Below, piece by piece: positions 35,234-53,891 of a DNA stretch of 64,000 bases. The translations under genes and the position numbers were made by a program. Source of the DNA: an uncultured Candidatus Saccharibacteria bacterium (GTDB taxonomy: Bacteria > Patescibacteriota > Minisyncoccia > Phycocordibacterales > WO2-35-19). Positions within the stretch are counted from its first letter, which is position 1. Every line of letters starts with the position of its first letter. The DNA lies in assembly GCA_964630525.1 (NCBI GenBank), contig CAZVUY010000001.1, positions 44,883 to 108,882 on the forward strand, in the 5' to 3' direction. The notes under the pieces were generated by a model that had not been told where the DNA came from, searched no databases, and saw nothing but the letters and a program-made list of their open reading frames with translations.

Positions 35234-35401
35234 TGCCCAGAAGAGGAGTCTCGGTCATTACATGACCAGTACACCTTTCGTATCTCCTTATCCTTCGCGC
35301 TGCTCAGGAGTGGAGATTTACTCAAGGTTTTCTCGTCCTCTCACGCAAGCAAAGCAGTTTGCTTGCTCTGGGCACCAAAAAACTGCCATTCCGCAGTTTT
35401 T
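35234..35401 (-). other. tRNA-Leu-adjacent element A: conserved 9-bp hairpin GCAAGCAAA-CTGC-TTTGCTTGC, spacer, then ~18-nt duplicate of the tRNA-Leu 3' end
   Basis: direct comparison with elements at 52560-52680 and 53738-53891. Confidence 0.65.
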
Positions 35402-35486
35402 TGGTGCCCAGGAGAGGACTCGAACCTCCACGCCTTGCGGCTTACCCACCTCAAGGGTAAATGTCTACCAATTTCAACACCTGGGC
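35402..35486 (-). tRNA. tRNA-Leu (GAG)
   Basis: GCCCAGG acceptor, long variable arm, anticodon loop TTGAGGT, GGTTCGAGTCC T-arm, CCA encoded. Confidence 0.85.
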
Positions 35487-35547
35487 ATTACAGGATAAGT
35501 ATATTCAAATTCGAACTTTTTACAATCAAAAACTTTTTGGTTTTAGT

Positions 35548-35582
35548 TCCCCTCCCCCTTGGGGAGGGGTTAGGGGTGGGGC
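35548..35582. repeat. GC-rich palindromic miniature repeat (family 2)
   Basis: CCCCTCCCCCTTGGGGAGGGGTTAGGGGTGGGGC. Confidence 0.6.
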
Positions 35583-35585
35583 TTT

Positions 35586-36071
35586 TTAGACTTCTGTTTT
35601 TTCAGCTTCTTTTTCTGGATTTTCAACAATAGTTTCTTCCACCTCCTTTGGCTCGACGGAGTCTTCTATGTAGTCGGCTGGTACTTCCCTTACATTTCTC
35701 ATTTGGCGACGGATTTCTTTGGCGGCCTTTTTGCGGATATGGTAGAGCTTGGCTCGACGGACTTTGGAGCGCTTAGTCACCTCGATTTTTTCAATCATTG
35801 GAGAATAGATAGGGAAAATTCTTTCTACTCCGACTCCACTCGCCACTTTGCGGATAGTGAAAGTGCCCCCAGCCTGCTTGCCATGCTTAACAGAAAGGCA
35901 AAGACCTTCAAAAGCTTGAAGACGGGTTTTAGGCTTGCCAGTTTTTTTGTCCTTCTCTACGATTTTCTGAGTAACTTTAATAGTATCCCCGGATCGTATA
36001 TCGAGAGCTTGTCTTTCTTTTATGTTTACTGGTGAAATTTTTATGGTATTCATGTGATTTTGCGAAATCAT
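35586..36071 (-). CDS. rplS: 50S ribosomal protein L19
   Basis: RSGDTIKV...KTRLQAFEGLCLSV...FTIRKVASGVGVERIFPIYSPMIEKIEV bL19. Confidence 0.88.
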   Translation of the reverse strand: MISQNHMNTIKISPVNIKERQALDIRSGDTIKVTQKIVEKDKKTGKPKTRLQAFEGLCLSVKHGKQAGGTFTIRKVASGVGVERIFPIYSPMIEKIEVTKRSKVRRAKLYHIRKKAAKEIRRQMRNVREVPADYIEDSVEPKEVEETIVENPEKEAEKTEV

Positions 36072-36110
36072 TTCGACCCAACGTCCATTAGAGGCCGAAA
36101 ATTTACTTTA

Positions 36111-36959
36111 TTATCTTTGTTTTCCTACCTTTCTTCTAGAAACAATAAATTTATTAGAATATTTCTTAGAGCGGCGTGATTTTTGGCCTTTGCCGGTTGG
36201 TTTGCCCCAAAGAGAAATAGCTCGGCGGCGACCTCTGCCTTGCCTACCCTCACCTCCTCCGTGTGGGTGATCAACTGGGTTCATAGCAGTACCTCGCACG
36301 GTCGGTCTAATACCTTTCCATCTAGAACGGCCCGCTTTACCAAAGTTTTCCAACCTCTTCTCTTCATTCGACACTTCACCGATGCTAGCAAAACAGGTCT
36401 CTCTCACCTTCCTAACTTCAGAAGAAGGCATCTTGAGGTCAACATAACCGGCATCCTTGGCGATCACCTGGACAAAATTGCCCGCCGATCGGCCGATCTT
36501 GCTACCACCGTTTGGTTTTAGTTCTACATTGTAAACAAAAGTGCCGACTGGTATCTCCTTGAGAGGCAGACGGTTACCTTGTTTTATTTCAGCTTTGAGG
36601 TCAGTGACGAATTTATCGCCAACCTTGATATTTCTTGGCATCAAGACGTATCTCTTTTCACCATCACGATAGACAGCGAGCCCGATGAGTCCAGTGCGGT
36701 TTGGATCATATTCCACTGAAACTATTTTATAAGGCACCCCAATTTTGTCGTATCTAAAGTCAACATCTCGGAAAAGTCTCTTGTGGCCACCCCCTTTGTG
36801 TCTCACTGTGATCCGGCCAGCGTTGTTGCGACCAACCGATCGCTTCTTGCCAAAAGTAAGTGCTTTGAGTGGACCATCTTTGCTTAAGATGTCTTTGTAA
36901 TTTACCACCGTCATGTGTCGGCGGGATTTAGTGGTTGGTTTGTAAGTCTTGATGCTCAT
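36111..36959 (-). CDS. rplB: 50S ribosomal protein L2
   Basis: 282 aa; GRNNAGRITVRHKGGGHKR... uL2. Confidence 0.93.
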   Translation of the reverse strand: MSIKTYKPTTKSRRHMTVVNYKDILSKDGPLKALTFGKKRSVGRNNAGRITVRHKGGGHKRLFRDVDFRYDKIGVPYKIVSVEYDPNRTGLIGLAVYRDGEKRYVLMPRNIKVGDKFVTDLKAEIKQGNRLPLKEIPVGTFVYNVELKPNGGSKIGRSAGNFVQVIAKDAGYVDLKMPSSEVRKVRETCFASIGEVSNEEKRLENFGKAGRSRWKGIRPTVRGTAMNPVDHPHGGGEGRQGRGRRRAISLWGKPTGKGQKSRRSKKYSNKFIVSRRKVGKQR

Positions 36960-36999
36960 ATCTTTGATTTAAGATGAAAGATTTAAATTTAAAATCCAC

Positions 37000-37287
37000 T
37001 TATTCGATCTTGTCACCTTTTTTTAAATAAACATAGGCTTTCTTCACTCCAGATTTCGTACCCTTTTTACCTCTCACAAACACGGCCTTGGCTGGATTGC
37101 GGACGATATTGATCTTGATCGGAGTCACCTTATAAAAAGCCTTGACTGCTTCATTGACTTCTTTTTTGTTGGCCTTATCAGAAATCTCAAAAGCGTAGAC
37201 CCCTTTCTCGACAGCGGTGTTGGCTTTCTCGGTGATTCTCGGTCGGAGGAGAACGTTTGCGTATTTTGCTTTTAGATCAGTAGCCAT
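37000..37287 (-). CDS. rplW: 50S ribosomal protein L23
   Basis: 95 aa; LLRPRITEKA...FEISDKANKKEV uL23. Confidence 0.88.
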   Translation of the reverse strand: MATDLKAKYANVLLRPRITEKANTAVEKGVYAFEISDKANKKEVNEAVKAFYKVTPIKINIVRNPAKAVFVRGKKGTKSGVKKAYVYLKKGDKIE

Positions 37288-37326
37288 TTTAGTGAATTTA
37301 AGATTGAAAAAGTAAAGATTAAAAGA

Positions 37327-37995
37327 TTATTTTAAACGGGCAGCAAGAGTGGCAATCGCCTTTTCCGGCTCGGTGACAACGCAATATCGATACCTAAGCA
37401 AATCAACCGCATTTAAATCCTTTACTTCACCAATTTCCAGGTTGCCAAAATTCCTGAAACTTTTGGAAAGGTTATCATTTTTACCAACGGTAGTAATAAA
37501 GGCAGCATTCTTTTTCCTGTTTATGTTGGCTTTGTTGTCAATCTTGGCAATTGAACTCAGAATTTCTTTTGCTTCTTTTGTTTTTGGGGCTTTCAAGGAA
37601 ATCTCATTGAGAAAGAGCACCTCTCCATCTTTAAACTTTTTCGAAAGTACCACAAAAAGAGCCTTGGTTTTCATTTTTTTATTGATTTTCACCGAGTAGT
37701 CACGCTCGTTGCGTGGACCATGAGCAATACCGCCACCAACCCAGATCGGACTACGACGAGAACCGTGCCTAGCTCGACCAGTACCTTTTTGTTTCCAAGG
37801 CTTGATACCAGTACCAGAGACTTCCCCTCGGGTCTTGGTGTGAGCGATTGGTGTTCGCTCATTGTTCAACATAGACTTCACCACCTGATCAACCAACTTT
37901 TCAGCCTTAGTATCCCAAGACAAGCCAAAAACATTCTCTGGTAGAGAGATCTTCCCTGTTTCCTTGCCTGTTTGGTTGTAAATTTTTGCTTCCAT
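37327..37995 (-). CDS. rplD: 50S ribosomal protein L4
   Basis: 222 aa; [25 protein letters not shown] uL4. Confidence 0.9.
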
Positions 37996-38033
37996 TTTGG
38001 ATTGAAAGGTTGAAAATTTTAAATTGAAATATC

Positions 38034-38648
38034 CTAATTGCCTTTAATTTCTACCAAAGTGCCTCGCCTACCCGGTATTGCTCCAGCGACAAGCATTGTA
38101 TTAGTTGAAGAGTCGATCTGCAACACTTCCAGATTTTTGACTGTCACCCTCTCTCCGCCGGTTCGGCCAGCCATCCTTTTACCCTTGGCCACTCGGCCCC
38201 CATCACGACCGCCACCGCCGATCGAACCTGGCTCCCTTTCAGAATGTTTCTGACCATGCGAGCGTGGACCACCATGAAAACCGTGCCTTTTGACCACCCC
38301 TTGGAAACCTTTGGCCTTGGAAATAGCGGAAACTGTCACCTTATCGCCAACACCGAAGATTTCGGCTGATATTTTGTCACCCAAATTTACATTGACCTGG
38401 TCTGGTCTATATTCTCGCAAAACAGCGAAATGACCTCGATCTTTTAGGTGACCCTTCAGAGATTTGGATAGTCGCTGTTCTTTAGTAGCAAAAGAGGCTA
38501 CCTGGACAGCTTCATAACCATCCTTTTCCTTGGTTTTTAGTTGGGTTACCACTGCTGGCTCTACATTCAAAATAGTAGCTGGCTTGACTACACCATCTTC
38601 CCCAAAAACCTGGGTCATATTCACTTTTTTGGCCAAAATAAACTTCAT
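38034..38648 (-). CDS. rplC: 50S ribosomal protein L3
   Basis: 204 aa; KGFQGVVKRHGFHGG uL3. Confidence 0.92.
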   Translation of the reverse strand: MKFILAKKVNMTQVFGEDGVVKPATILNVEPAVVTQLKTKEKDGYEAVQVASFATKEQRLSKSLKGHLKDRGHFAVLREYRPDQVNVNLGDKISAEIFGVGDKVTVSAISKAKGFQGVVKRHGFHGGPRSHGQKHSEREPGSIGGGGRDGGRVAKGKRMAGRTGGERVTVKNLEVLQIDSSTNTMLVAGAIPGRRGTLVEIKGN

Positions 38649-38737
38649 ATAAAAATGCCCGAGATACGATACAGGGCTTTAATAAGCTAACAAATATAGA
38701 ATTAAAATGCAAGCTCACCTCAATGTAACACAAAAAC

Positions 38738-38805
38738 TAAAAACAAAAATTCCGATCTGCGTGGGAACCCTTTAGGGAGGAGCAGTCGGAATTTTTGTTT
38801 TTAGT
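38738..38805 (-). terminator. perfect 19-bp hairpin (CTAAAAACAAAAATTCCGA / TCGGAATTTTTGTTTTTAG, 30-nt loop) immediately after rpsJ, followed by a T-run
   Basis: seen in sequence; located between the S10 stop and the L3 start. Confidence 0.5.
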
Positions 38806-38820
38806 TTTTGTATTTGAGCC

Positions 38821-39189
38821 CTATACGATCTTAACCTCAATATTCACCCCAGAAGGCAAAGAAAGGTTGGTCAGAGCATCCATGATCTTTGGAGAAGGGT
38901 TTACGATATCGATCATTCGGCGATGAACCCGCATCTCAAACTGCTCTCGAGCATTCTTGTAGACAAAGGGTGCGCGGTTCACTGTGTATTTCTTGATCTC
39001 AGTCGGCAGAGGCACTGGCCCGACGACTTTGGCATCATAACGCAGCGCGGTATCAATGATCTGCTTGATCGAAAGATCAAGGATCTTGTACTCATAAGCC
39101 ATCACTCGGATACGCAATTTCGAAACATGCTCATCCTTTTTTTGATGTTTTTTGCCGCTGTTTTTTTCTTTTGTTAACGTACTCGACAT
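38821..39189 (-). CDS. rpsJ: 30S ribosomal protein S10
   Basis: RIRVMAYEYKILDLSIKQIIDTALRYDAKVVGPVPLPT uS10; ORF extends upstream into the tuf 3' end, start uncertain. Confidence 0.88.
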   Translation of the reverse strand: MSSTLTKEKNSGKKHQKKDEHVSKLRIRVMAYEYKILDLSIKQIIDTALRYDAKVVGPVPLPTEIKKYTVNRAPFVYKNAREQFEMRVHRRMIDIVNPSPKIMDALTNLSLPSGVNIEVKIV

Positions 39190-39220
39190 AATTTTAACCC
39201 TCTTTGGCGTGATCGGTAGT

Positions 39221-40825: not shown

Positions 40826-43800
40826 TTAAGCTAACTTTTTATCCAAAACTGGCGGCTGGCTCTGTTGCCTCATCAAGAAACCGCCTATTCTCTTGATATA
40901 GCTCTCCATGTTTTCTCCATTATCATACGGCTTGAAATCGGCATTCGAATGTTTATGGGCCTCCTCTACCAAATCAGCTACCCATTCCACCAACTTACGA
41001 TGTTTTTCGGAAGTTTGGAGTTCTTGCAAAATTGTTTGCGGCAAATCAGAAGTCTCTGGACTCTTAAAATATTCTAACACCCTTCGGGCCGGAAGTCCTG
41101 AGATAGTTTTCCACTCTTTGGTCGCCACTCCAGCTATTTTCTGCAAACCCAGAAGATGGCTCTCACCATAAATATTATCTATTTCGTTATTGAAAACCTG
41201 ATTGACCGCTTCATTTATCTCAGCCGTTTTGGCGACCACCGAAGTATCGCTCGACATGGTACGCAACCTTTCTCGACCGTCTTCTAATATTCCAAGCTCT
41301 CTCTTGGCTCTTATCACCTCCTCATTCGCCGCAAGTTTGGCCTGCGGATCAACGACCTCGTTTTGGGCCAGCCTCAACCTCACCCTCTCGGGCTCCGGTT
41401 GAGATTTCGGTGTCTCAATATCTTGAAAAGGTGCTTCTGGAGAAACTGGCTTTAACTTTTCAAGCTCTTCTGATACAGAAATAGGTGACGGCTCCATCTC
41501 CGGGGCATCTGGTAGTTCTGGAACAGCTGGTTCGGTCTTTGGCATTTCAAAAACTTTTGGTTTCTGGTTCACTATTTCATCGAGATCAAGTTGTTTGCCA
41601 GGATTTTCAGAAAGCCAAGTTTCAATCTTATGATTACTGTCAATAATCGAGGTTATTTGAGCTGGTTTCAGATTCTCCGCCTCATTTAAAAGAGCTTCTA
41701 ATTTCTTCGAATCAGCAAAAAGGTTTGAAAAATCTACTTTTTGACCTACCGATATTTCCCCATTCGAACCAATACCGTATTTTTCATTGTTTTTTAGCAC
41801 CTCATCAACCAAACTTTGCAAAACCCTAGTCTGCTTGGCCTCAATCTGATCAGCGATTTCTTGTAGAGATCCGGCTCCACTCAAATTTTTAAACTTATCG
41901 TTATTCTCCAGAGTTTCCTTGAGCATTTTCCAAACCGAATCTCCAGCTTTAACCTGGTGAATAAGAGTTTCTGGTTTTAGAGGGGGTATGGATTCGGGTG
42001 CTGATGTTTTTGGTGTTGATGCTATTTCTGTTTCTGGTACTGGTGATACTTCTGGTTTTTCTGAAGCTTTTGGTGTAACAGACTCTGACACTTCTGCCCC
42101 CTCTCCTACCGGAGTTTCGGCGACTTCAGGTTTTGTTGGTTCGGATTGGCCAACTTGAGACTCATTTAATTCTTGTATCTGAGCTTTGACTTTCGGCTCA
42201 ACGGCTGCCAAATCTTGGCTATTTGGAGATTTCAACGATTGATCCATTGTCGAAGCGGCATCAGATTTTGGACCAACTGGCTCTTGGCTGAATTTAGGAG
42301 CGTTTCTATACAACCTATTTTGATCAAGACGACCCCTTTGTTCGGTTTCCAAGGTAGGTGATCCACCAGTTCCCTCAATAGTGCTAGTGGCAAAATTTTC
42401 AGCAAAATTAGCCAGAAGCCCTGTACCGGCACCAGCAAGAGCAGTAACTCCGACCCTTTTCGCGGCCATTTTTATTCTTTCTTTCTTGTATTTTTGCTGT
42501 ATACTTAAAAATCTTTTTGATTTTTCCTCCAAAGAAAGGTTAGAATTTTTTAAATCTTCAATATCCCTTCTCTCGTCTTCATTAAGTTTTTCAATAGACC
42601 ACCGTTTACCAGTCCATTCTCCAGCAGCCACACCCGCAGCACCAGAGGCAACCCTTTTACCAACAAAACCGAGCGCTCCAAATGCCCCTGCTCCAGCACC
42701 AAAAGTAAGTCCCGCTACCGTACCCACTCCAAAGTTGAGAGCAAACCTCTGTTTTCGAGAAAGTCCCAAATACCATTTAACTGTTTTGGTGGCTAAAAGG
42801 TTTTTTACCATTTCAGCAGCCTTATCTGTAAGGTTTTCTTCTCTTGCTTGTCTTTTGGCGTTTATCCGCTCATCATGCTCTCTCCTTACCAACTCCTCAA
42901 ACAAGGCGTCGTTTATTTTCTTTTCTAGTTCTTCTTGTGTAAGATTGCCATTTTCTTCATTTATAACTTTTTCTCTAATTTGCTGTTTTACACGATCTCT
43001 TGCGATAAAATAATTTTCTTGTACTTGCTTTAAATATTCTAAAGTTACCTTTCCTTTATTGTAATCATCGGTTATACCAACAACCGCGACTCTCAACCTA
43101 TCAAGAAGTATTTTTGGGTCTTCGTTGTTTGGATCATAATCAATTCGTTCTGGCTCTTCATTCCTATATTGGTCAGGACGAGCACCAACATCTTCCTCCT
43201 CTATTCTTTGTAGATGGCCTAAATCAGAAAGTTTTTGTTCTGCAGTTTTTTCTTTAAAATCATGGAAGCCAACGTTTCTTTTTAGAGGCTCTTTATCAAG
43301 TTGTTCCATGGCAAAAGGTATAAATTCAACAAGCTCTTCTGGTTCTATAGATGGCGAAACAAAAAGGTCTCTAATTGATTCATTAACCAAGTTACGTCCC
43401 AAAAAAGTGTTTGAGGCCCCAATTATAATTCTATTTATGTGTATATGGTCTACAGAAGAAATATTTAAAATTTTTAGAGCTTCTAAAACCTTTTCTGCGG
43501 TAGCGAGATCAATGGGTTTTTCTTCATACTTTGATGTCTTTTCATTAAATACTGGTTGGGAAGATACTTTAAAGCCCATCTTTTCTAATTCACCTACTGC
43601 ATTGGTTTCTTGTGAACTCATACCCGGTTCTGGTCCTACTTGTTTTTTCTCCTCTTCTTCTTCGTCTTCCAGTTTTATAAAGTCACTTCTGTCTTCATTT
43701 GGGTCCAATTGGTCTACACCATCTTGCTCGGATAAAACAGCGTTTTTGATATATTCATTTACAAACTCAACATTTGCATCACGTCTAACCTTGAGAATCT

Positions 43801-44545
43801 TTTCTCCCTCGTCGTATATCGCAAGACTTGGAAGAGCTTCTACTTTTTCCACCCTAACACCCAAACTACTGAGTTTTTCTAGCAGCTCACCGTCAATAGA
43901 AGTAAGATCAAAATCTTCTTGGTCTTCTGGTTCCGTTATCTCCTCTTGTGATGGTAGGTCTGGTTCTGCGTCAGGGTTAGGTTGTGCGCCACCGTTTTGC
44001 TCCTCTTCTTCTATGCTTTTCTGTTTAACAAAATTGATAATTTCTTCTTTAGAAACTCCTGGACCTATCTTTAATTGGCCATTTTCAAAAAAGATTCCTG
44101 GATTTGCTGCCAGACGCAGCTTCCCTTTTAGTTGTTTCAGTGCTTCCTGGTCATTGACAGATTGCAAATCATCAATAGCAGAACTTACAGATTCGTAGAC
44201 ACCAGCCCTAACCTCCTTCGTTAAATTGTGGAAATCGTCAGTAATGGCCCCCTTTTCAGGGACCAAATAAAAAGAAACTTTATTTACGGGAGAATTAAAC
44301 TTTCCGGTCACCCCTGTTTTTCCAAAATCAGCTAGAGAATTTCCTCCTGTGTTTTTATGATTCGGATCCAATTGTTCTAATTTTTGAGAAAATGATAAAT
44401 TTTCAAAACCAGGATCAAGCGCTGGTATTTCTTGAGTATTTTGAGGTTGGCCGCTGTTGGCAATTTCTTCATTCAAATCCGCTAGCGCCTCGGCGGTTGA
44501 AACACTACCGCTATTTTGTGGAGAATTATTCAAATCAGGATCCAT
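40826..44545 (-). CDS. very large hypothetical protein (~1240 aa) with acidic low-complexity tracts, Gly/Ala-rich TM segments and one LysM-like motif
   Basis: continuous ORF; HQVKAGDSVWKMLK LysM-like; start set at MDPDL (ORF extends to 44629). Confidence 0.55.
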   Translation of the reverse strand: MDPDLNNSPQNSGSVSTAEALADLNEEIANSGQPQNTQEIPALDPGFENLSFSQKLEQLDPNHKNTGGNSLADFGKTGVTGKFNSPVNKVSFYLVPEKGAITDDFHNLTKEVRAGVYESVSSAIDDLQSVNDQEALKQLKGKLRLAANPGIFFENGQLKIGPGVSKEEIINFVKQKSIEEEEQNGGAQPNPDAEPDLPSQEEITEPEDQEDFDLTSIDGELLEKLSSLGVRVEKVEALPSLAIYDEGEKILKVRRDANVEFVNEYIKNAVLSEQDGVDQLDPNEDRSDFIKLEDEEEEEKKQVGPEPGMSSQETNAVGELEKMGFKVSSQPVFNEKTSKYEEKPIDLATAEKVLEALKILNISSVDHIHINRIIIGASNTFLGRNLVNESIRDLFVSPSIEPEELVEFIPFAMEQLDKEPLKRNVGFHDFKEKTAEQKLSDLGHLQRIEEEDVGARPDQYRNEEPERIDYDPNNEDPKILLDRLRVAVVGITDDYNKGKVTLEYLKQVQENYFIARDRVKQQIREKVINEENGNLTQEELEKKINDALFEELVRREHDERINAKRQAREENLTDKAAEMVKNLLATKTVKWYLGLSRKQRFALNFGVGTVAGLTFGAGAGAFGALGFVGKRVASGAAGVAAGEWTGKRWSIEKLNEDERRDIEDLKNSNLSLEEKSKRFLSIQQKYKKERIKMAAKRVGVTALAGAGTGLLANFAENFATSTIEGTGGSPTLETEQRGRLDQNRLYRNAPKFSQEPVGPKSDAASTMDQSLKSPNSQDLAAVEPKVKAQIQELNESQVGQSEPTKPEVAETPVGEGAEVSESVTPKASEKPEVSPVPETEIASTPKTSAPESIPPLKPETLIHQVKAGDSVWKMLKETLENNDKFKNLSGAGSLQEIADQIEAKQTRVLQSLVDEVLKNNEKYGIGSNGEISVGQKVDFSNLFADSKKLEALLNEAENLKPAQITSIIDSNHKIETWLSENPGKQLDLDEIVNQKPKVFEMPKTEPAVPELPDAPEMEPSPISVSEELEKLKPVSPEAPFQDIETPKSQPEPERVRLRLAQNEVVDPQAKLAANEEVIRAKRELGILEDGRERLRTMSSDTSVVAKTAEINEAVNQVFNNEIDNIYGESHLLGLQKIAGVATKEWKTISGLPARRVLEYFKSPETSDLPQTILQELQTSEKHRKLVEWVADLVEEAHKHSNADFKPYDNGENMESYIKRIGGFLMRQQSQPPVLDKKLA

Positions 44546-44596
44546 AACAAAATTATACTTGAGCCACACCAAAAACAGAAGTGGAAAGAGGGTTGG

Positions 44597-44678
44597 GGTT
44601 GACCCCGTAGTAGAAAACCCCATTGGCATTTGCCTGCTTTTTTCAAAGCTATGGGATTTTTCACTACGGGGTTGACTT
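44597..44678. repeat. ~24-nt imperfect inverted repeat (GTTGACCCCGTAGT...ACTACGGGGTTGAC) in the divergent region upstream of nusA
   Basis: seen in sequence. Confidence 0.55.
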
Positions 44679-44701
44679 TTTCTGACCTTTGGGTGTATAA
44701 T
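44672..44701 (+). promoter_or_regulatory. sigma70-like promoter TTGACT-18-TATAAT for nusA
   Basis: consensus hexamers with 18-nt spacer, ~105 nt upstream of nusA. Confidence 0.5.
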
Positions 44702-44725
44702 GCGGGCAATACTGAAATCAGCGTC

Positions 44726-44754
44726 ATCCGCCTCCCAGCGGATTTTGTTTTTTC
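44726..44754 (+). terminator. leader hairpin ATCCGC-CTCCCA-GCGGAT plus T-run (candidate attenuator in nusA leader)
   Basis: hairpin followed by TTTTGTTTTTT within the 5' leader. Confidence 0.45.
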
Positions 44755-44807
44755 TGGTTCGGTGTGATTTACAAATTTTTAACTTTACAGTTTAAAAAAT
44801 TAAAAAC

Positions 44808-46016
44808 ATGTTTGATCTAAAAATCATCAATTCAGTCCTTGATCAGCTCAAGGAGGAGCGTGGTATACCAAAAGAAAGGGTAATCGAGGCCATCGAAATG
44901 GCTCTTGCCACTGCTTATAAAAAAGAGTATGGCAAACGAGGCCAGATCGTCCGCGCCAAGTTTGACCTAAAAAGCGGTAGTGTCGAGATGAGTCAAGTCA
45001 AGATCGTTGTCGACGACTCCAAAGTGTTCATGGACAGAGAGTCACTAGAGGAAGCTTTGGCTACCGCCGAAGAAAAAGATGATGACAGAGTACTCTTCAA
45101 CCCAGAACACCACATCCTGCTCGCTGACGCCCAAAAAATCAAAAAAGGGGTCGAGGTAGGCGATGAAATCGTCTTTCCACTAGAAACCAAGGGTGACTAT
45201 GGCCGGATCGCCAGTCAAACTGCTAAACAGGTGATCATGCAGAAAATCAGAGAGGCTGAACGAGATTCGGTCCTCAAAGAATTTGGGGCTCGAGAAGGAG
45301 AGATCATCACCGGCAATGTCCAGCGTATCGAGCGCGGCAACATCTTCGTCGATGTTGGTCGAGCGGTTGGTATTTTACCTTACGAAGAACAGATTCCGGG
45401 CGAAAGATTCAGCCAAGGCGAGAGAGTGCGTGCTTACCTTTACCGAGTAGAAGACGGTATGAAAGGGGTCGCCTTGCGCCTCTCCCGTTCTCACCCACGA
45501 TTTTTGATCAAACTTTTTGAAAACGAGGTGCCAGAACTCGCAAACAACACCATCGAAATCAAGAGTGTCGCCCGAGAAGCCGGCTCTCGCTCCAAAGTAG
45601 CGGTAGCGACCAACGACAATTACATCGACCCAGTCGGCTCTTTGGTCGGCCAAAGAGGAGTCCGCGTAGCTACCGTCACCAGCGAACTTGGTGGTGAAAA
45701 AATCGATGTCATAGAGTGGTCCGAAAACCCAGCCGAATTTATCGAAGACGCTCTCTCCCCTGCTAAAATAGTATCCGTCGAAATCGACGAAGAAAATCAT
45801 CAAGCCAACGTAGTCGTTTCCGAAGATCAGCAGTCTCTGGCTATCGGTAAAGGTGGTCAAAACGTCCGCCTAGCGGCCAAACTCACTGGCTGGCGCATTG
45901 ATATCAAGTCAGTCAGAGGTGATGAACTTGGTGGAGCTGAAAGCGAAGCGGAAGAGACCGAATCAGCACCTCACCCCACCCCATCCCCTGATAAAATGGA
46001 AGAAGAATCCGAATAA
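44808..46016 (+). CDS. nusA: transcription termination/antitermination factor NusA
   Basis: N-terminal domain MFDLKIINSVLDQLKEERGIP; S1 and KH domains. Confidence 0.92.
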   Translation: MFDLKIINSVLDQLKEERGIPKERVIEAIEMALATAYKKEYGKRGQIVRAKFDLKSGSVEMSQVKIVVDDSKVFMDRESLEEALATAEEKDDDRVLFNPEHHILLADAQKIKKGVEVGDEIVFPLETKGDYGRIASQTAKQVIMQKIREAERDSVLKEFGAREGEIITGNVQRIERGNIFVDVGRAVGILPYEEQIPGERFSQGERVRAYLYRVEDGMKGVALRLSRSHPRFLIKLFENEVPELANNTIEIKSVAREAGSRSKVAVATNDNYIDPVGSLVGQRGVRVATVTSELGGEKIDVIEWSENPAEFIEDALSPAKIVSVEIDEENHQANVVVSEDQQSLAIGKGGQNVRLAAKLTGWRIDIKSVRGDELGGAESEAEETESAPHPTPSPDKMEEESE

Positions 46017-48656: not shown

Positions 48657-48686
48657 GTAAAAAATTATAAGATTAAAAATATAAAA

Positions 48687-48995: not shown

Positions 48996-49010
48996 TCTTG
49001 GATTTATCAA

Positions 49011-49046: not shown

Positions 49047-49078
49047 CTAGCCCAAATAATAGCTGCTAAGATACTGTC

Positions 49079-49879: not shown

Positions 49880-49898
49880 TTTGCTTTAACGAGACTAC

Positions 49899-50334
49899 CT
49901 ATAAAGTACAGCCGAGGTTATTAGAAACCTTGTTAGCTGCCCTATTGTAAGATTTCTCGGCAGACTCCACAGCTTTTGCCGCATTTTTGAGCACCCTAGC
50001 CTCATCTTTGGTGCGTTTCTGCAACGCTTTTTCTTTTTGTTTGGTTAGCTCTTGAATTATTTTTGGTCTGACCGACGAAGTATAAGAGGAGGCCCCAGAT
50101 ATTGCGGTATCGTATTTTTCTCTAACAGCACTAGTCAATGCTTGCTGCCTTGTTATTTCTAATTGTTGATTGGCTCTAGCAATAGTTAGGCTAGCAAAAT
50201 AATTGTCCCGATTTGCCAAGGACTTGGCGGTTGAATCTTTTACCCTCTGACTACACTCGGCAGCGTAGACAGAAGACGCCAAGAATAAAGTAAGGGCAAA
50301 CGTACCTGCTTTTATAAAATAATCTACTCTCATA
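49899..50334 (-). CDS. secreted hypothetical protein
   Basis: signal peptide; start set at MRVDYF to avoid overlap with the DUF378 gene. Confidence 0.4.
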
Positions 50335-50352
50335 AATTTATAGAACTCAATA

Positions 50353-50574
50353 TTACATTTGGCCAGTCGATTGACCGACTTTTGGCTCACAATGCTTGCA
50401 AGTATCACGATGGGTAAATACTTCAACCAAAGCCGCTAGGGCCACCAACAAATAAACCACTTTGGCTAGTCCCATCGGAAGAAACGAGCCAATCCCCCAC
50501 CCTAGTACTTCGAGTCCCCAATTGAGACCGCCGACGATAAGAAGAATAAAGGTGAGCGTATGCAAACTTTTCAT
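50353..50574 (-). CDS. DUF378-family small membrane protein
   Basis: 73 aa, two TM, GLNWGL motif. Confidence 0.6.
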   Translation of the reverse strand: MKSLHTLTFILLIVGGLNWGLEVLGWGIGSFLPMGLAKVVYLLVALAALVEVFTHRDTCKHCEPKVGQSTGQM

Positions 50575-50651
50575 ATTTGTTAAAAATTAAACAATCTTAC
50601 TAATACGAAGATTATATATTTGTTTTCAATTTTAATTAAGCAAAATTGTGT

Positions 50652-50677
50652 ACAAAAAAGCCACCAAGATGCGGTGG
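50652..50677 (-). terminator. rho-independent terminator (minus strand) ending a ~170-nt structured GC-rich region
   Basis: CCACCGCATCTTGGTGG followed by CTTTTTTGT on minus strand. Confidence 0.6.
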
Positions 50678-50850
50678 AGGGTTTTCGCACAACATGGTGG
50701 CTTTCGCAAAGAACATTCTCCAGCACCATTTTCGTCAAACAATTCGGCGAAATTACTTAACCAAAGTGGTGCTGGACAAAAGAAAGATCTCGTTGAACGC
50801 GATTTCGTAAGCCTTTGGTCTAATATCTCAAAAAAAATTATATGAGCGAA
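50678..50850 (-). ncRNA. candidate structured RNA / cis-regulatory leader upstream of the DUF378 gene (identity unknown)
   Basis: nested hairpins (12-bp stem CAGCACCAnTTT..AAAGTGGTGCTG; 10-bp stem AAAGCCACCA..TGGTGGCTTT), GC-rich island in a 455-nt AT-rich intergenic region, terminated by a canonical terminator. Confidence 0.35.
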
Positions 50851-51030
50851 GATATTTATATACCTTTACTTACTTATCAACCAAACCTTCTTTTTGCAAT
50901 CAATCATGATTGACAAAGAACTAATTGCTGAACTAATTGCTGATGATAACTTAAAAAATATCAGCGTCTGAAGATATTCTATGTCTTTTATAAAAGATGT
51001 AAAGGACAATCTGTGGAAAACTTCTGTCTT

Positions 51031-52530
51031 TTACTCTACATGATGCTTGTCTCTTATTTCCTTGACCTTCTTTTCTTCTTCCAATTCCCTCTTTTCCTTG
51101 CCTTTATCTCCCAACTTTTTGAGTTCTTCTTCTGGCAATTTGGAAAGTTCGACTACCCTACTTGTCAAATACTCCTCGATATTCAAGTCGGGCTTGTCCA
51201 ATACCTCTTCAAGCAAAGCATTCAATATTTGGCCGATTTTGGGCCCAGGAGGAATAGAAAGAAGATTCATGATCCCCTGCCCATCAATTTTGAGCATTCC
51301 TACGGAAATCGGGTCGGCCATGACCTCTTCAATCATTGATTGGTATTTTCTCAGCCTGTAGGGCTTTTCTTTGGGCCTACCAGTGCCTATCCGGTCACAC
51401 AACCTAACATTTACAAGATCCCATATTTTGTCCTTGCCAACATTTGCAATAAGCCTCCTAACAGCTGAATGAGTGATTGTTTCTGTGTCAGAGAAAAACA
51501 TATGCCATCTGACCAGACTAACAACATTGTCTATAGTTTCACGTGAAAACTTTAGATTTTCCAATATCTTCCTAGTTACACGTGAACCAACCACCTCATG
51601 GCCATAAAAAGTCCATTGCTTAGCCTCTTTATCCCACCGACGGGTAGCTGGTTTTGCAATATCATGCAACAAAGCCGCCAATCTGACGTGGAGGGGATAT
51701 TCTTTATCTGCTGAATGCTGGAGAGTTTTCAACAGGTGAGTCCAAACATCGTAAGAATGGGCTTTATTTTGCTCCACACCCACACTTTCTATCAATTCCG
51801 GCACTACATACTGCAGAATCCCCAATTTGTGCAATATCTGTAGACCAAGCATGGGGGCAGGGGACATAATTATCTTTATAAACTCATCCTTAATCCTTTC
51901 CTTTGAAATATGTTGCAAAATATGGCTATTTTCAAAAATGGCTTTTTCTGTTTCTGGATCGATAGCAAACCCCAGTTCCACATGAAACCGGACCGCTCTC
52001 AACATTCGGAGACCGTCTTCTGTAAATCGGTCCTTTGGAATACCTACTGTTTTTATTGTATTTTGAGCTAAATCCAGCACTCCACCGAATAGGTCGATTA
52101 TTTCACCAGTCTCCGGATCGTATGCAATAGCGTTTATAGTAAAATCGCGCCTTTTTAGATCGTCCTCTAGATTTTGACTGAAAACAACCTCATCTGGACG
52201 ACGATGGTCAGAATAAGCACCTTCCAGCCTATAAGGGGTGACTTCTATCACTTTTAAAGTTTCATCAGAAACAAATTCATCTACTATCGCCACAGTACCA
52301 AATTTATTTTCATAAAAAGTTTTTGGGAATAGGGGAATGATCTGTTCAGGGGTAGCATTGGTTGTCAGATCCCAGTCTTTAGGTTTTCTACCCATAAACA
52401 AGTCTCTCACACACCCTCCAACCAAATACGCCTCAAAACCGCCCCCTTTTAGGGTTCTGGTTACACGAGAAACACTCTCGGGAATATCGAATTTTGTTAT
52501 TTTAGCCTTATTTTGCATGGGTTTTACCAA
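51031..52530 (-). CDS. cca: CCA-adding tRNA nucleotidyltransferase with HD domain
   Basis: GGCVRD...DWD polymerase-beta motif; HD domain LLHDIAKP. Confidence 0.85.
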   Translation of the reverse strand: MVKPMQNKAKITKFDIPESVSRVTRTLKGGGFEAYLVGGCVRDLFMGRKPKDWDLTTNATPEQIIPLFPKTFYENKFGTVAIVDEFVSDETLKVIEVTPYRLEGAYSDHRRPDEVVFSQNLEDDLKRRDFTINAIAYDPETGEIIDLFGGVLDLAQNTIKTVGIPKDRFTEDGLRMLRAVRFHVELGFAIDPETEKAIFENSHILQHISKERIKDEFIKIIMSPAPMLGLQILHKLGILQYVVPELIESVGVEQNKAHSYDVWTHLLKTLQHSADKEYPLHVRLAALLHDIAKPATRRWDKEAKQWTFYGHEVVGSRVTRKILENLKFSRETIDNVVSLVRWHMFFSDTETITHSAVRRLIANVGKDKIWDLVNVRLCDRIGTGRPKEKPYRLRKYQSMIEEVMADPISVGMLKIDGQGIMNLLSIPPGPKIGQILNALLEEVLDKPDLNIEEYLTSRVVELSKLPEEELKKLGDKGKEKRELEEEKKVKEIRDKHHVE

Positions 52531-52559
52531 ATCTAAAGCAGTTTAGATTTTTTGCTTTG

Positions 52560-52680
52560 TGCTCCCGGAGGGACTCTTTCCTTACAGGAACGGTACACCT
52601 TTCGTATCTCACTTCGCTCGATATACTCAAAGTTTTCTCGTCCCTCTCGCAAGTAAAGCAGTTTACTTGCTTGGTCGCTG
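52560..52680 (-). other. tRNA-Arg-adjacent element B (conserved hairpin GCAAGTAAA-CTGC-TTTACTTGC with compensatory change; ends in a perfect 17-nt duplicate of the tRNA-Arg 3' end)
   Basis: GAGTCCCTCCGGGAGCA duplicated at 52560-52576 and in tRNA 52681-52697. Confidence 0.65.
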
Positions 52681-52752
52681 TGCTCCCGGAGGGACTCGAA
52701 CCCCCAACAACGGTTCCGAAGACCGTTGTGATATCCATTTCACCACGGGAGC
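52681..52752 (-). tRNA. tRNA-Arg (TCG)
   Basis: GCTCCCG acceptor, anticodon loop CTTCGGA, GGGGGTTCGAGTCCCTC T-arm. Confidence 0.8.
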
Positions 52753-52834
52753 AATAGGGGAATAATACCACGAAAAATACAAAAAAGAATTAGTGCTTAC
52801 ACCGCGTAGTGCCGAAAACAGGTGAAGTACGAAG

Positions 52835-52908
52835 TGGTGCGGCTAGGGAGAATCGAACTCCCGTCTCATCCTTGGCAAGGACGTGTCCTACCACTAAACT
52901 ATAGCCGC
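52835..52908 (-). tRNA. tRNA-Gly (GCC)
   Basis: GCGGCTA acceptor, anticodon loop TTGCCAA, GGGAGTTCGATTCTCCC T-arm, CCA encoded. Confidence 0.85.
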
Positions 52909-52964
52909 TTACTTATTAATCTATCATAGCAGTTATTTTTTTACAAAATTATTGAGAGATTGTT

Positions 52965-53072
52965 AGGCGCCAGATCATTCCTTCTCTCGCTACGGAAATT
53001 TTTTGCTAAAAATTTCCTTGTCCTCAGCTTTCCAGCAGCTTCCGGAAGCTCGTTCAGGAACAATCTGGCGCC
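52965..53072. repeat. ~108-bp imperfect hairpin element with 11-bp terminal inverted repeats (AGGCGCCAGAT) and internal palindromes
   Basis: seen in sequence; in the divergent region between the tRNA genes and yraN. Confidence 0.5.
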
Positions 53073-53212
53073 TTCCAAAACCGTAAAAATGTCCGAAAAG
53101 TGTTAAAATGACTTTGTGGTCTAGTTCCCCTTATTTTTCAATAAAATTACCGATCTGACAGACAAACTGGGGATAACTATGGGGACATTGTGTAAAAGTC
53201 AAAGCCAGAATT

Positions 53213-53614
53213 ATGGCAAAACATAACGAAATTGGTCAAATAGGGGAGAGTCTAGCCTCAAAATATGTTGAAAACAAAGGGTTTTTTGTTATAGACAGAA
53301 ATTATCGGAAAAAGTGGGGGGAATTGGACATAATTGCGGAAAAGGACGGGGTTATTCACTTTATTGAAGTAAAAACAGTGAGCCGGAGAAGTTATGGGGA
53401 GAAGGGTAGGTTTGAGCAGGAGATCAATAACTACCGTCCAGAGGACAATATGCACCCTTGGAAGCTGCAGCGACTCCGTCGAGCGATCCAAACCTACTTA
53501 TTGGAAAAATACCGGAGTAAAGAGCCGCCTTGGCAATTTGACCTCGCTTGTGTCTTTTTGGATCAAGAAAAGCGAGTGGCAAAAATAAGATTTATGGAAA
53601 ATCTGATTTTATGA
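53213..53614 (+). CDS. YraN-family (UPF0102) predicted endonuclease
   Basis: GESLASKYVENKGFFVIDRNYRKKWGELDIIA pattern. Confidence 0.7.
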   Translation: MAKHNEIGQIGESLASKYVENKGFFVIDRNYRKKWGELDIIAEKDGVIHFIEVKTVSRRSYGEKGRFEQEINNYRPEDNMHPWKLQRLRRAIQTYLLEKYRSKEPPWQFDLACVFLDQEKRVAKIRFMENLIL

Positions 53615-53666
53615 TAGGCTTATCTGGTAAAGTCCGCCTACGGTAAAGCCAAGGGCGCGACAAAGA

Positions 53667-53737
53667 CGGGGTGTAGTACAGTGGTAGTATACACGCTTTG
53701 GGAGCGTGAGATCCGAGTTCGATTCTCGGCACCCCGA
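53667..53737 (+). tRNA. tRNA-Pro (TGG)
   Basis: C1-G72 acceptor CGGGGTG, anticodon loop TTTGGGA, CCGAGTTCGATTCTCGG T-arm, A73. Confidence 0.8.
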
Positions 53738-53891
53738 ACGCAGTGAGGAGAGCAAGCAAACTGTTTTGCTTGCGTCCGGAATCGAAAGCCGGAGTATGTT
53801 TTTTGTAGCAACAAAAAACTACGAGGCGGGGTCGCAGAAATTTGCGAGTGACGACGAGCAAATTATCTGTGACCGATTCTCGGTACCCCGA
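53738..53891 (+). other. tRNA-Pro-adjacent element C (conserved hairpin GCAAGCAAA-CTGT-TTTGCTTGC; ends in a 19/20 duplicate of the tRNA-Pro 3' end)
   Basis: CGATTCTCGGTACCCCGA at 53874-53891 vs tRNA 3' end CGATTCTCGGCACCCCGA. Confidence 0.65.

Follow-up and report, generated by a model that had tools for sequence, protein, structure and literature searches.

Elements adjoining three tRNA genes

The window, that is, the whole stretch of 64,000 nt from a candidate-phyla-radiation bacterium that was analysed and to which all coordinates refer, contains six tRNA genes located with ARAGORN, namely Leu(GAG), Arg(TCG), Pro(TGG), His, Gly and Pro(GGG). An initial annotation had placed a short element with a conserved hairpin 3' of the first three only, and this was borne out: the hairpin GCAAGYAAACTGYTTTRCTTGC occurs exactly three times, each time on the strand of its tRNA, so that 3/6 window tRNAs carry an element (Table 1). 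In 100 shuffles the motif occurred 0 times, with a chance expectation of 0. The elements measure 122, 154 and 170 nt, in agreement with the predicted 120-170 nt. The hairpin begins 9 nt from tRNA-Arg and 14 nt from tRNA-Pro, as proposed (5-20 nt), but this range fails for tRNA-Leu because the spacer there is 35 nt long.

Read from the tRNA, an element consists of a spacer, the hairpin (HP), a right guide a' that can pair with tRNA positions 56-65 in the T-loop/T-stem, a three-way-junction core with helices P2 and P3, and X2, which forms the 3' end and repeats the tRNA sequence starting at C56. The spacer sometimes comprises a terminator-like palindrome and a left guide b' whose sequence is complementary to the 3' strand of the acceptor; the Leu copy has both (palindrome AAAAAACTGC-GGAAT-GGCAGTTTTTT and left guide GGTGCCCAG), and the Pro spacer ACGCAGTGAGGAGA is a degenerate left guide, complementary at 7/9 positions to TCTCGGCAC. 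The segment right after the hairpin, overlooked in the initial annotation, is complementary to the T-loop/T-stem 3' strand of the same tRNA; in the Leu copy GAGAGGACGAG pairs with the T-loop end and the T-stem 3' strand. The type A core of Leu runs from J12 (AAAAC) through P2 with a tandem-GA loop and J23 (GGTGTAC) to a P3 hairpin with a GTA loop. The type B core of Pro has J12 AAAG, a GCC/GGC helix P2 with a GGAG/CGAG tandem-GA loop and an apical hairpin, and as P3 the long hairpin GGTCGCAG...CTGTGACC; its MFE fold equals the model.

The compensatory C:G to T:A change described for the Arg hairpin is indeed present in the sequence, and each element ends in a repeat of its own tRNA 3' end, which in Leu matches at ~20/22 positions with one small indel. 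The Arg copy is followed by a partial second unit, 10 nt ahead of the cca start codon, whose hairpin HP' (AAATCTAAACTGCTTTAGATTT) has the same loop as HP and a perfect stem with four compensatory pair changes. This second-unit pattern recurs in loci L025, L048, L058, L076 and L077.

Table 1. tRNA genes and element parts in the window.
Feature	Position	Strand	Description
tRNA-Leu(GAG)	35402..35486	-	ARAGORN and sequence; 3' part (C56 to CCA) is target copy X1
Leu spacer	35367..35401	-	A-tract/T-tract palindrome 35377-35401, left guide b' GGTGCCCAG 35368-35376, then A
Leu HP	35345..35366	-	9-bp stem, loop CTGC
Leu guide and core (type A)	35254..35344	-	GT, right guide a' GAGAGGACGAG 35332-35342; z = -4.5
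Leu X2	35232..35253	-	CGAGACTCCTCTTCTGGGCACA, tRNA-Leu 3'-end copy from C56; ~10 nt at its start form the P1 3' strand
tRNA-Arg(TCG)	52680..52752	-	ARAGORN
Arg spacer and HP variant	52649..52679	-	Spacer AGCGACCAA, without left guide; HP GCAAGTAAACTGCTTTACTTGC 52649-52670
Arg guide and core (type A)	52577..52648	-	a' GAGAGGGACGAG 52637-52648; P2, J23 GGTGTAC, P3 loop TGTAA
Arg X2	52558..52576	-	GAGTCCCTCCGGGAGCACA, 19/19 identical to tRNA-Arg 3' end
Arg second spacer and HP'	52529..52557	-	HP' AAATCTAAACTGCTTTAGATTT 52529-52550
tRNA-Pro(TGG)	53667..53737	+	ARAGORN
Pro spacer and HP	53738..53773	+	Spacer ACGCAGTGAGGAGA; HP GCAAGCAAACTGTTTTGCTTGC 53752-53773
Pro guide and core (type B)	53774..53873	+	GT, right guide a' CCGGAATCG 53776-53784; z = -7.2
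Pro X2	53874..53891	+	CGATTCTCGGTACCCCGA, 17/18 identical to tRNA-Pro 3' end from C56

A widespread family linked to tRNA and tmRNA genes

A scan with the hairpin pattern, performed on one genome per species, matched at least 120 loci. The same architecture occurs in more than 100 species, mostly Patescibacteria, with about 12 Elusimicrobia and one Omnitrophota among the matches listed, and the 22-nt hairpin sequence is conserved across these phyla. A same-strand tRNA, of 32 anticodon types in all, ends 8-59 nt upstream of 76/117 hairpins among the matches listed, where tmRNA precedes four hairpins and many further ones come after an earlier unit of a tandem array; thus, the motif is linked to tRNAs and is not a general repeat. 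This family is described in no database or paper that we searched, with no match to the elements in Rfam, phages, plasmids or the literature.

The same core subtype is found at different tRNAs and different subtypes at the same tRNA, and in long-lived lineages, for example those at tRNA-Pro of L069, L070 and L088, the structure has been kept but not the sequence. Partial or truncated second units occur besides tandem ones, and a second hairpin, sometimes cut near its loop (L020, L082), often closes the unit. Among the 77 tRNA-adjacent copies, 39 have a terminator-like hairpin with a T-run between tRNA and element, and b' is present in 46 and absent in 31. In some members, for example L012, the end of the tRNA lies within a perfect palindrome of 20-30 bp. 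The element of L009 does not adjoin a tRNA: its site (GTTT|CGATGCC), which resembles a T-arm, lies upstream of tsaD, and a 22-nt direct repeat duplicates the first tsaD codons there.

Conserved structure of a single strand

The type A model left 90% of cells paired, against 75% in shuffled and 32-50% in slid controls, with a covariation score of 0.455 versus 0.163 (0/500 shuffles). Double changes were found in 7/7 pairs of P2 and 5/5 of P3. In type B, 18/34 pairs showed compensatory changes and one G.U pair was invariant. G.U pairs outnumbered A.C pairs 28:5 between a' and the tRNA and 22:4 between b' and the tRNA. As the helices covary and G.U far exceeds A.C, selection acts on a single strand with the sense of the tRNA. 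This supports the initial proposals of mini-elements and/or a tRNA-linked structured RNA.

This strand could be DNA. A non-autonomous element of the IS200/IS605-PATE or REPIN kind, served by an HUH or Xer-type enzyme encoded elsewhere, would be recognised by its hairpin in single-stranded DNA, the flanks of the hairpin foot would pair with the cleavage/target site, and HP' would correspond to the opposite end or to a rolling-circle terminus. Such elements are likewise small, non-coding, hairpin-centred and strand-specific, with short guides at the hairpin foot and the enzyme in trans, and the target-complementary segments on both sides of our phylum-crossing hairpin resemble this layout. Single-stranded DNA tolerates G.T wobble, and the loops are rich in C-GAA-G, C-GTA-G and T-GTA-A, which are very stable DNA mini-hairpins; GNA-type triloops and long perfect palindromes over the tRNA end suit it as well as RNA. 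The second hairpins that close units are also compatible, and the elements lie between terminators, so that in a DNA pathway transcription would not be needed. We nevertheless consider a DNA element of this kind improbable. IS200/IS605 guides have 4-5 nt and leave no repeat, whereas here guides of 10-25 nt match the whole tRNA 3' half and are accompanied by a 12-25-nt target copy; conservation is lacking in the right-end sequences, and no end tetranucleotide is conserved. The tandem-GA loops and the invariant G.U pair are more RNA-like, and neither a Y1/HUH transposase nor a Rep gene was found in the window or at any locus among the matches listed.

Pairing with the adjoining tRNA

Guide and copy are specific for the neighbouring gene. 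Right guides form a median of 11 bp with their own tRNA, compared with 6 for the tRNA of another locus, and the 3' copy spans a median of 15 nt against 8 nt (67 family members), so the duplicates exceed chance. The repeats vary widely in length (median 18.5 nt, interquartile range 12-23). The copy starts within 1 nt of the T-loop C56 in 33/63 cases, where X2 begins exactly after GGTT, and the hairpin (the b' junction) always lies opposite tRNA position ~65/66. At positions where a' and X2 mismatch, a' is Watson-Crick to the tRNA at 8/9, while X2 has drifted from C to T with a G.U pair kept; a' follows the tRNA rather than the a2 copy.

A guide RNA of the TnpB omega-RNA, type V crRNA or IS110 bridge-RNA kind, serving a protein whose gene lies elsewhere, would use the core as scaffold, X2 as 3' guide and the GGTT before the tRNA-gene target as a PAM/TAM-like motif. 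The sharp start of X2 at C56 and the order of scaffold and 3' guide agree with such a role. Bridge RNAs have binding loops, which a hairpin between two guide segments resembles, and homing guides of CRISPR-associated transposons lie next to their own target, as the elements do. These RNAs too are non-coding, specify their target by pairing and use tRNA genes as homing sites. Several observations make this role decidedly improbable. Within the element, P1 ties up the first 10 nt of the putative guide, an orthologue (L125) retains only 10 nt of it, and secondary units pair with sites without GGTT. In addition, no Rfam omega-RNA or crRNA family and no other sequence or structure matched, and no TnpB, Cas12 or IS110-type effector gene was present in the window or in the loci among the matches listed, the element being the sole cargo.

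Orthologous sites and search for a linked enzyme

Insertion next to tRNA 3' ends is supported by empty orthologous sites: relatives L122-L124 lack the element at both tRNA-Arg and tRNA-Pro, and L127 also lacks it at tRNA-Arg. A filled tRNA-Arg site was found in L125. Outside the P2 apical loop the two Arg elements are ~95% identical, the conservation of a tRNA gene, and their flanks are unalignable (saturated). The L125 hairpin has the C:G form, GCAAGCAAA...TTTGCTTGC, so the double change separates these orthologues. Of the Arg X2, only GAGTCCCTCC (a2) is conserved in L125; as the acceptor part is absent there, the target duplication is not uniform.

None of the 46 window ORFs encodes a reverse transcriptase, transposase or integrase, and none of these lies nearby. 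Among the matches listed, no protein family is found in more than 9/120 loci, the commonest with a Pfam match being housekeeping, and neither integrases nor any other family are enriched.

The initial annotation had also suggested scars of tRNA-targeting islands, in which a tyrosine integrase acts at the T-loop and an internal deletion leaves attL and attR ~100 nt apart. Its core, insertion adjoining a tRNA 3' end with a copy of that end, stands. A direct repeat from the T-loop to or past the tRNA 3' end together with tmRNA targeting is the classical signature of such islands and prophages, which likewise leave the tRNA intact and form tandem arrays, and Xer-like integrase genes lie 3-4 kb away in relatives, though beside empty sites. 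The scar itself is very unlikely and largely refuted. The same small size of 100-170 nt and a covarying, strand-specific interior with compensatory changes recur at more than 100 independent loci. Unlike decaying DNA, this interior has been maintained between orthologues whose flanks are unalignable. No integrase lies inside the elements, and among the matches listed none is enriched nearby. Att scars further fail to explain the inverted target copy (the guide) and the use of a2, part of the repeat, as a helix strand.

The main competing explanation, which we regard as possible though on balance unlikely, is a host RNA, either cis-acting or small and structured, with a link to tRNA expression; it would be made in one transcript with the tRNA and fold as a tRNA-like minihelix. 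In this fold b'/b2 would mimic the acceptor stem and a'/a2 an extended T-stem, HP would take the place of the D arm and the anticodon arm, and the T loop would be represented by the three-way junction. It might serve as a processing, insulating or quality-control module, for instance by capturing a misfolded tRNA 3' half or through excision by RNase P and RNase Z. On this reading the structure itself would demand the repeats, and recombination would account for the spread of the family. The strong covariation, tandem-GA loops and invariant G.U pair are typical of functional RNA, the guide junctions fall exactly at the tRNA boundaries C56 and 65/66, a' tracks the tRNA, and no mobility gene lies nearby in the window or at loci among the matches listed. 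Conservation between orthologues, whose hairpins differ by a compensatory change, and retention of structure rather than sequence fit a host function equally well. Like the tRNA-like domain of tmRNA, the 3' tags of retroplasmids and plant viruses and SINEs, the b'-bearing element can stack its two helices into an acceptor/T-stem-like helix ending in the discriminator base of its neighbour. It differs in lacking a T loop, D arm and anticodon arm and in copying whichever tRNA adjoins, and since 40% of copies have no b', only part of the family could mimic an acceptor stem. A host role is further opposed by the patchy occurrence, by tandem and truncated units, by the non-tRNA site of L009 with its target duplication and by the terminators upstream of 39/77 copies.

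A proposed mobile element guided by base pairing

We favour, with about even confidence, a non-autonomous, protein-less mobile element of ~100-170 nt that targets tRNA and tmRNA 3' ends by base pairing. Coordinated changes of a', b' and a2, which retargeting to a new tRNA would need, count against it. Group I intron-type elements, which are common as introners in Patescibacteria tRNA genes (PMC13011429), offer a partial parallel. They too are structured RNAs with short segments complementary to insertion-adjacent sequence, and in their guide the downstream-pairing segment lies 5' of the upstream-pairing one, as b' precedes a'. Our elements lie outside the tRNA, follow no splice-site logic, have a far smaller core without an Rfam intron match, and duplicate rather than split the target. 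The target duplication resembles that of retroposons; we know of no reverse transcriptase for these elements.

The active form of the mobile element would be one folded strand with the sense of the tRNA, most likely an RNA made in the same transcript as the tRNA, although the terminator-like hairpins speak against simple co-transcription. A catalyst supplied in trans, such as a reverse transcriptase plus nuclease, a recombinase, or host replication and repair enzymes, would carry out insertion. In the free element, the target copy a2 would keep a' paired in helix P1, so that P1 would be a duplex replica of the target site. It could exchange partners with the gene: a' would bind the sense strand at tRNA positions 56-65 and a2 the template strand, and the optional guide b' on the other side of the conserved hairpin would pair with the acceptor 3' strand. 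Insertion just downstream would leave the tRNA intact and duplicate the target from C56 to the insertion point.

Hairpin elements downstream of three tRNA genes

Six tRNA genes were identified in the window by ARAGORN. The 22-nt hairpin GCAAGYAAACTGYTTTRCTTGC (HP) occurs exactly three times, each time 3' of a tRNA gene and on the same strand, and it was not found in any of 100 dinucleotide-preserving shuffles of the window. The link to tRNA-Leu, tRNA-Arg and tRNA-Pro proposed in the initial annotation is thereby borne out, while the distance of about 5–20 nt given there holds for the Arg and Pro copies and is exceeded by the Leu copy. The elements are 170 nt (Leu), 122 nt (Arg) and 154 nt (Pro) long, and each closes with the predicted duplicate of the 3' end of its tRNA, which is identical at 19/19 positions for Arg, 17/18 for Pro and about 20/22 for Leu, the last with one indel. 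No element was found at tRNA-His, tRNA-Gly and tRNA-Pro(GGG) of the window, as had been noted before.

Positions of the hairpins and of further features in the window
Feature	Position	Strand	Remark
HP, Leu copy	35345-35366	-	3' of tRNA-Leu(GAG), same strand; spacer 35 nt
HP, Arg copy	52649-52670	-	3' of tRNA-Arg(TCG), same strand; spacer 9 nt
HP, Pro copy	53752-53773	+	3' of tRNA-Pro(TGG), same strand; spacer 14 nt
Second hairpin AAATCTAAACTGCTTTAGATTT	52529-52550	-	CTGC loop as in the main HP; perfect stem
CCA-adding enzyme gene (cca)	51031-52518	-	ATG at 52518
G/C-only hairpin CCCCTCCCC-AA-GGGGGAGGGG	35547-35568	-	overlaps 3' end of the listed rplS ORF
Motif GAGCGAAGCGAG or variant, example	52608-52619		
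Motif GAGCGAAGCGAG	34209-34223	-	just downstream of the element-less tRNA-His
1,267-aa ORF	40826-44629	-	
Low-GC stretch	~1250-6230		beside rplE
Change of gene orientation	~44630-44810		between the 1,267-aa ORF and nusA

Read in the sense of the tRNA, the order is the 3' part of the tRNA gene itself (X1), a spacer, a single A, HP, GT, the right guide a', AAAG, helix P2, a short junction, helix P3 and the second copy X2. X1 consists of segment a, which runs from C56 of the T-loop through the 3' strand of the T-stem, and segment b, the 3' strand of the acceptor. The guide a' is complementary to tRNA positions 56–65, and its pairing with a2, the start of X2, forms P1, which closes a three-way junction. 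An optional left guide b' is complementary to b; the Leu spacer contains an A-tract/T-tract palindrome followed by b'. P2 carries a tandem-GA internal loop and a variable apical hairpin. Two types of core (P2 and P3) were distinguished: type A, with the junction GGTGTAC and a short P3 with a GTA loop, in the Leu and Arg elements, and type B, with GGAG/CGAG in P2 and a long P3 (GGUCG...UGACC), in the Pro element. RNAfold reproduced this model with z = -7.2 for Pro, -4.5 for Leu and, with P1 incomplete in the folded sequence, -2.4 for Arg.

Beyond a2 of the Arg element follow b2, a second spacer and the hairpin AAATCTAAACTGCTTTAGATTT, which differs from the main HP by four compensatory stem-pair changes and lies 10 nt ahead of the start codon of cca. 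This hairpin represents a partial second unit, and a like pattern is present in five loci from other genomes (L025, L048, L058, L076 and L077). The motif GAGCGAAGCGAG and its variants GAGCGAAGTGAG, GAGTGACGACGAG and CGAGACGAAGTCGA recur in terminal loops and spacers of the elements. The G/C-only hairpin listed in the table lies about 60 nt upstream of tRNA-Leu and is unusual for a genome of 43% GC.

Distribution of the family

A scan with the exact hairpin pattern in a collection with one genome per species gave at least 120 matching loci; a regular expression for the type B core was too unspecific to serve. The matches listed belong overwhelmingly to Patescibacteria (Paceibacteria/Parcubacteria lineages, Saccharibacteria and Kaiserbacteria), together with about 12 Elusimicrobia, one Omnitrophota and a few other metagenome-assembled genomes, which may be mis-binned. 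By the relatives of its CCA-adding enzyme, the source of the window itself is a Zambryskibacteria-like Paceibacterion. Among the matches listed with enough upstream sequence, 76 of 117 hairpins are preceded by a tRNA gene on the same strand that ends 8–59 nt upstream, with 32 anticodon types represented. Four hairpins among the matches listed follow tmRNA, and most others follow an earlier unit of a tandem array or a tRNA overlooked by the finder. The hairpin is thus tRNA-linked rather than a general repeat, which the initial annotation had named as a refuting outcome. In one tandem array (L004) the tRNA preceding the two elements had been overlooked because it is interrupted by a group I intron (Rfam RF00028, 54.6 bits; 2360-2602, minus strand). 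In L002/L103, L008, L011, L037 and L089, some tandem units have another hairpin in place of HP or no hairpin there at all, so the family is larger than the hairpin search shows.

Guides and copies match the neighbouring tRNA

In a set of 67 elements, the segment following HP pairs with the tRNA of its own locus over a median of 11 bp, compared with 6 bp for the tRNA of another locus. For the 3' copy, the median match is 15 nt with the tRNA of the same locus and 8 nt with that of another locus, which places such duplicates above chance. The copy starts sharply at C56, directly after GGTT (33/63 within 1 nt of C56), and its ungapped length from this base has a median of 18.5 nt with an interquartile range of 12–23 nt. 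Its 3' end is variable: it lies inside the tRNA in 7 cases, at the tRNA end in 18, in the spacer in 24, and in 10 the repeat extends through the spacer and a second hairpin. The left guide b' (at least 8/9 pairs) was detected in 46/77 copies, and the pairing partner of its last base always lies 9–10 nt before the annotated tRNA end, so that HP faces exactly the point where the T stem meets the acceptor stem.

At positions where X1 and X2 differ, a' forms Watson-Crick pairs with the tRNA in 8/9 cases, and in 5/9 X2 carries a C-to-T change that keeps a G.U pair. The guide a' follows the tRNA and not its partner a2 within the element. Three elements at tRNA-Pro(TGG) (L069, L070 and L088) have in common an odd second copy, GAAATTCCCGG, where the tRNA reads CGAATCCCGG; their P2 and P3 sequences are wholly different with pairing kept. 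They represent an old lineage in which structure, and not sequence, was retained.

The sharp GGTT|C56 boundary is what might be expected if X2 were the free guide, at least 16 nt long, of a guide RNA for an unseen effector, as it follows GGTT in the target. This explanation is highly improbable; the putative guide is paired inside the element, its first 10 nt being engaged in P1, and is conserved for only 10 nt, the length kept in the orthologue L125. Of the effectors expected with TnpB omega-RNA, type V crRNA or IS110 bridge RNA, no TnpB, Cas12 or IS110 recombinase is adjacent in the window or the loci.

Selection on the tRNA-sense strand

Covariation was counted from two MAFFT alignments, A2 and A4, the structure of A2 being set by hand. 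For type A (23 sequences), 90.3% of cells are standard pairs, compared with 75.4% in shuffled alignments and 32–50% with slid partners, and the covariation score of 0.455 (0.163 after shuffling) was reached in 0/500 shuffles. Double changes affect 7/7 pairs of P2 and 5/5 pairs of P3. For type B (14 sequences), RNAalifold recovered HP, P1, P2 and P3, with compensatory changes in 18/34 pairs and one invariant G.U pair.

G.U pairs outnumber A.C mismatches by 28:5 in pairs between a' and the tRNA (one-sided binomial ~3e-5) and by 22:4 in those between b' and the tRNA (~3e-4). This excess indicates that the selected structure is that of the tRNA-sense strand. A reverse-strand RNA with a 5' guide, as in IscB or Cas9 systems, is thereby excluded, since G.U pairs of the sense strand are A.C mismatches on the opposite strand.

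The selected single strand could be DNA, handled by an HUH-type mechanism. Terminator-like hairpins with T-runs lie between tRNA and element in 39/77 copies, and GNA-type triloops and long perfect palindromes are present as well; these features count against a simple co-transcribed RNA and keep the single-stranded DNA mechanism alive, to which we assign a low probability. No Y1 HUH transposase (TnpA/RAYT) was seen in the 64-kb window or in the 8-kb pieces of other genomes.

Empty and filled sites in related genomes

In three related loci (L122-L124), whose neighbour protein is 74–76% identical, the next gene begins 3–11 nt after tRNA-Arg, and nothing resembling the element was found downstream of tRNA-Pro; the tRNA-Arg site of L127 (79% identical) is also empty. 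By contrast, the site is filled in L125 (79% identical as well), where the tRNA-Arg is identical to that of the window and precedes an orthologous element. The two sequences align with about 95% identity from the end of the tRNA to the end of a2 (GAGTCCCTCC), whereas no alignment was possible for the Gly-Arg spacer and for everything beyond a2. The conserved unit therefore comprises spacer, HP, a', core and a2; its conservation is close to that of the adjacent tRNA-Gly gene, and the apical loop of P2 is the only part replaced. The compensatory C:G to T:A change recognised earlier in the Arg hairpin was confirmed, and it separates the window from its L125 orthologue. The cca gene comes immediately after tRNA-Gly, tRNA-Arg and the element. 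As cca starts 3–11 nt after tRNA-Arg in the relatives, tRNA and cca mRNA are probably co-transcribed, with the element at their junction.

Such strong conservation, together with a placement aware of tRNA structure, is consistent with a host function, for example as a tRNA-like or processing RNA. We regard this explanation as rather unlikely, because it fits poorly with the patchy distribution among relatives, with truncated units and with an insertion at tsaD. Models of tRNA (ARAGORN and Rfam) matched true tRNAs only, and an acceptor/T-stem-like stack is possible only with b', so that the elements do not fit a tRNA-like structure or tRNA pseudogene as such models define it.

Further observations point to mobility. 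One core subtype (GAAGCCCGATTGAGC...GCCAATTGGGGTACTG) is found after tRNA-Pro (L093), after a tRNA-Pro-like 3' end (L007) and after tRNA-Asp (L118), different subtypes occupy one and the same tRNA, and genomes contain several copies. The clearest case is L009, a contig of only 2 kb from a Leptospira metagenome-assembled genome whose taxonomic assignment is uncertain. Here the element (~1340-1520, minus strand) lies upstream of an oppositely oriented tsaD at a T-arm-like site, GTTT|CGATGCC, and the first codons of tsaD are present twice, in the 22-nt direct repeat TCGATGCCTAARATTTTCATAA. This repeat is a target-site duplication starting at the base equivalent to C56.

Comparison with known elements

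In the window, Rfam at gathering scores returned tRNA only; at E<=10 no credible match was obtained for the window elements, nor was there any at E<=1 for the elements of 12 loci. The detection of a true group I intron in L004 shows that the search works. Known self-cleaving ribozymes and riboswitches (hammerhead, twister, pistol, hatchet, HDV-like, T-box, Drum and others) gave no covariance-model match; inspection by eye revealed no CUGANGA of a hammerhead or other ribozyme core, and the A and GU linkers around HP are too short for catalysis. The exact hairpin pattern had no match in viral contigs, and blastn of one type B copy had none in phage and plasmid records. The hairpin sequence was not found in the literature, where a keyword search returned only work on tRNA group I introns of Patescibacteria, concerned with anticodon-loop introns.

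Pfam analysis of the 46 window ORFs identified no reverse transcriptase, transposase, integrase, HUH or TnpB-like gene; the neighbours encode ribosomal proteins, EF-Tu, NusA, RecJ, RNase H, ComEC and the CCA-adding enzyme. When 1,043 ORFs were clustered all against all, no candidate partner protein emerged, as no family is present in more than 9/120 loci, and eight of the ten commonest neighbour families are housekeeping and two lack a Pfam match. Elsewhere in the window, the low-GC stretch (0.33–0.34 compared with ~0.43) encodes a GmrSD-N/HNH nuclease, a Bro-N protein, an AAA_15/AbiEii-like ATPase and an EcoRI-type adenine methylase and looks like an acquired defence island. At the change of gene orientation, from mostly minus to plus, the fall of the cumulative GC skew levels off, with the lowest table value at ~52 kb, and this site may be a replication origin; the adjoining 1,267-aa ORF matched no Pfam family and no relative among PDB structures.

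The initial annotation had named scars of a tRNA-targeting integrative element as one of several possible origins. A repeat of the tRNA 3' end is indeed present, as expected for attL/attR, but the insert comprises only 100–170 nt and no integrase or cargo is found beside the loci or in the window. More than 100 loci have one small covarying interior in common, none has an integrase, and each contains an inverted copy of the target, so that this origin is very unlikely and the possibility was not upheld. With IS200/IS605-derived PATEs and REPINs the elements have in common a hairpin and flanking complementary segments; the elements differ from these families, which have short guides and no target duplication, in that here guides of 10–25 nt and a copy of the target are present. 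Classical MITEs produce short target duplications of fixed length (2–14 bp); here the repeats are variable and 12–25 nt or longer, terminal inverted repeats are missing, and the left part complements the flank and not the right end.

A group I intron was excluded since RF00028 did not match the elements, which lie 3' of intact tRNAs, and a T-loop intron with the second copy as 3' exon since a canonical tRNA is already complete with the first copy and L125, L045 and L005 lack the acceptor part of the second copy. The adjacent reverse transcriptase expected of a retron ncRNA or other retroelement is encoded neither in the window nor by the neighbour families, and a CRISPR array does not fit, as there is one hairpin per locus, rarely two or three at a spacing of 140–200 nt with a conserved core between them. 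A diversity-generating retroelement was rejected because differences between template and variable repeat should then be adenine-specific; those observed are C/T, and mutagenesis of tRNA ends would be lethal. Altogether, T-loop-class integrative elements, PATEs/REPINs, intron internal guides, bridge/omega/homing RNAs and tRNA-like tags each have one or two features in common with the elements, and each fails at least one defining test.

Proposed mechanism and implications

The explanation that we prefer, with confidence that is about evenly balanced, is a non-autonomous mobile element which recognises 3' ends of tRNA and tmRNA genes by its guides a' and b'. As P1 is a duplex copy of the target, an exchange of partners, a' pairing with the sense strand and a2 with the template strand, could couple recognition to priming or strand transfer. 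Such a swap would account for a' tracking the tRNA, for a2 having to stay target-like and for the start of the repeat at C56; units would stack in tandem because each X2 provides a new target. The partner swap, the enzyme and the chemical identity of the intermediate are points that we infer.

A bolder form of this proposal, which we put forward only tentatively and consider doubtful, is a 'guide-only' transposon, a new protein-less class of mobile elements in which a structured RNA (or single-stranded DNA) of about 100 nt programs its own insertion. Its closing helix would replicate, as a duplex, the target in the tRNA or tmRNA gene (the 3' half of the T-arm), and by the swap with both DNA strands it would guide enzymes of the host, or enzymes acting in trans, in nicking and copying.

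Under either a mobile or a host reading, the elements are relevant to annotation: in hundreds of metagenome-assembled genomes they give rise to fragments of tRNA 3' ends and to intergenic structures, which could be confused with island scars. If they are host RNAs, they would form a new and widespread class of tRNA-linked RNA in bacteria whose RNA biology is almost unknown. If they are mobile, they would be transposable elements cut down to guide and scaffold, with a target choice readable from sequence; one could then test by what means small non-autonomous elements reach safe sites that are conserved, and whose enzyme they use, and the elements could lead to an insertion system that is programmable. 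The genomes of Patescibacteria (CPR) are tiny and streamlined and yet carry many copies beside tRNA and tmRNA genes, and the guide-only proposal, if true, would mean that an RNA-guided, self-homing element is abundant in the smallest bacterial genomes.
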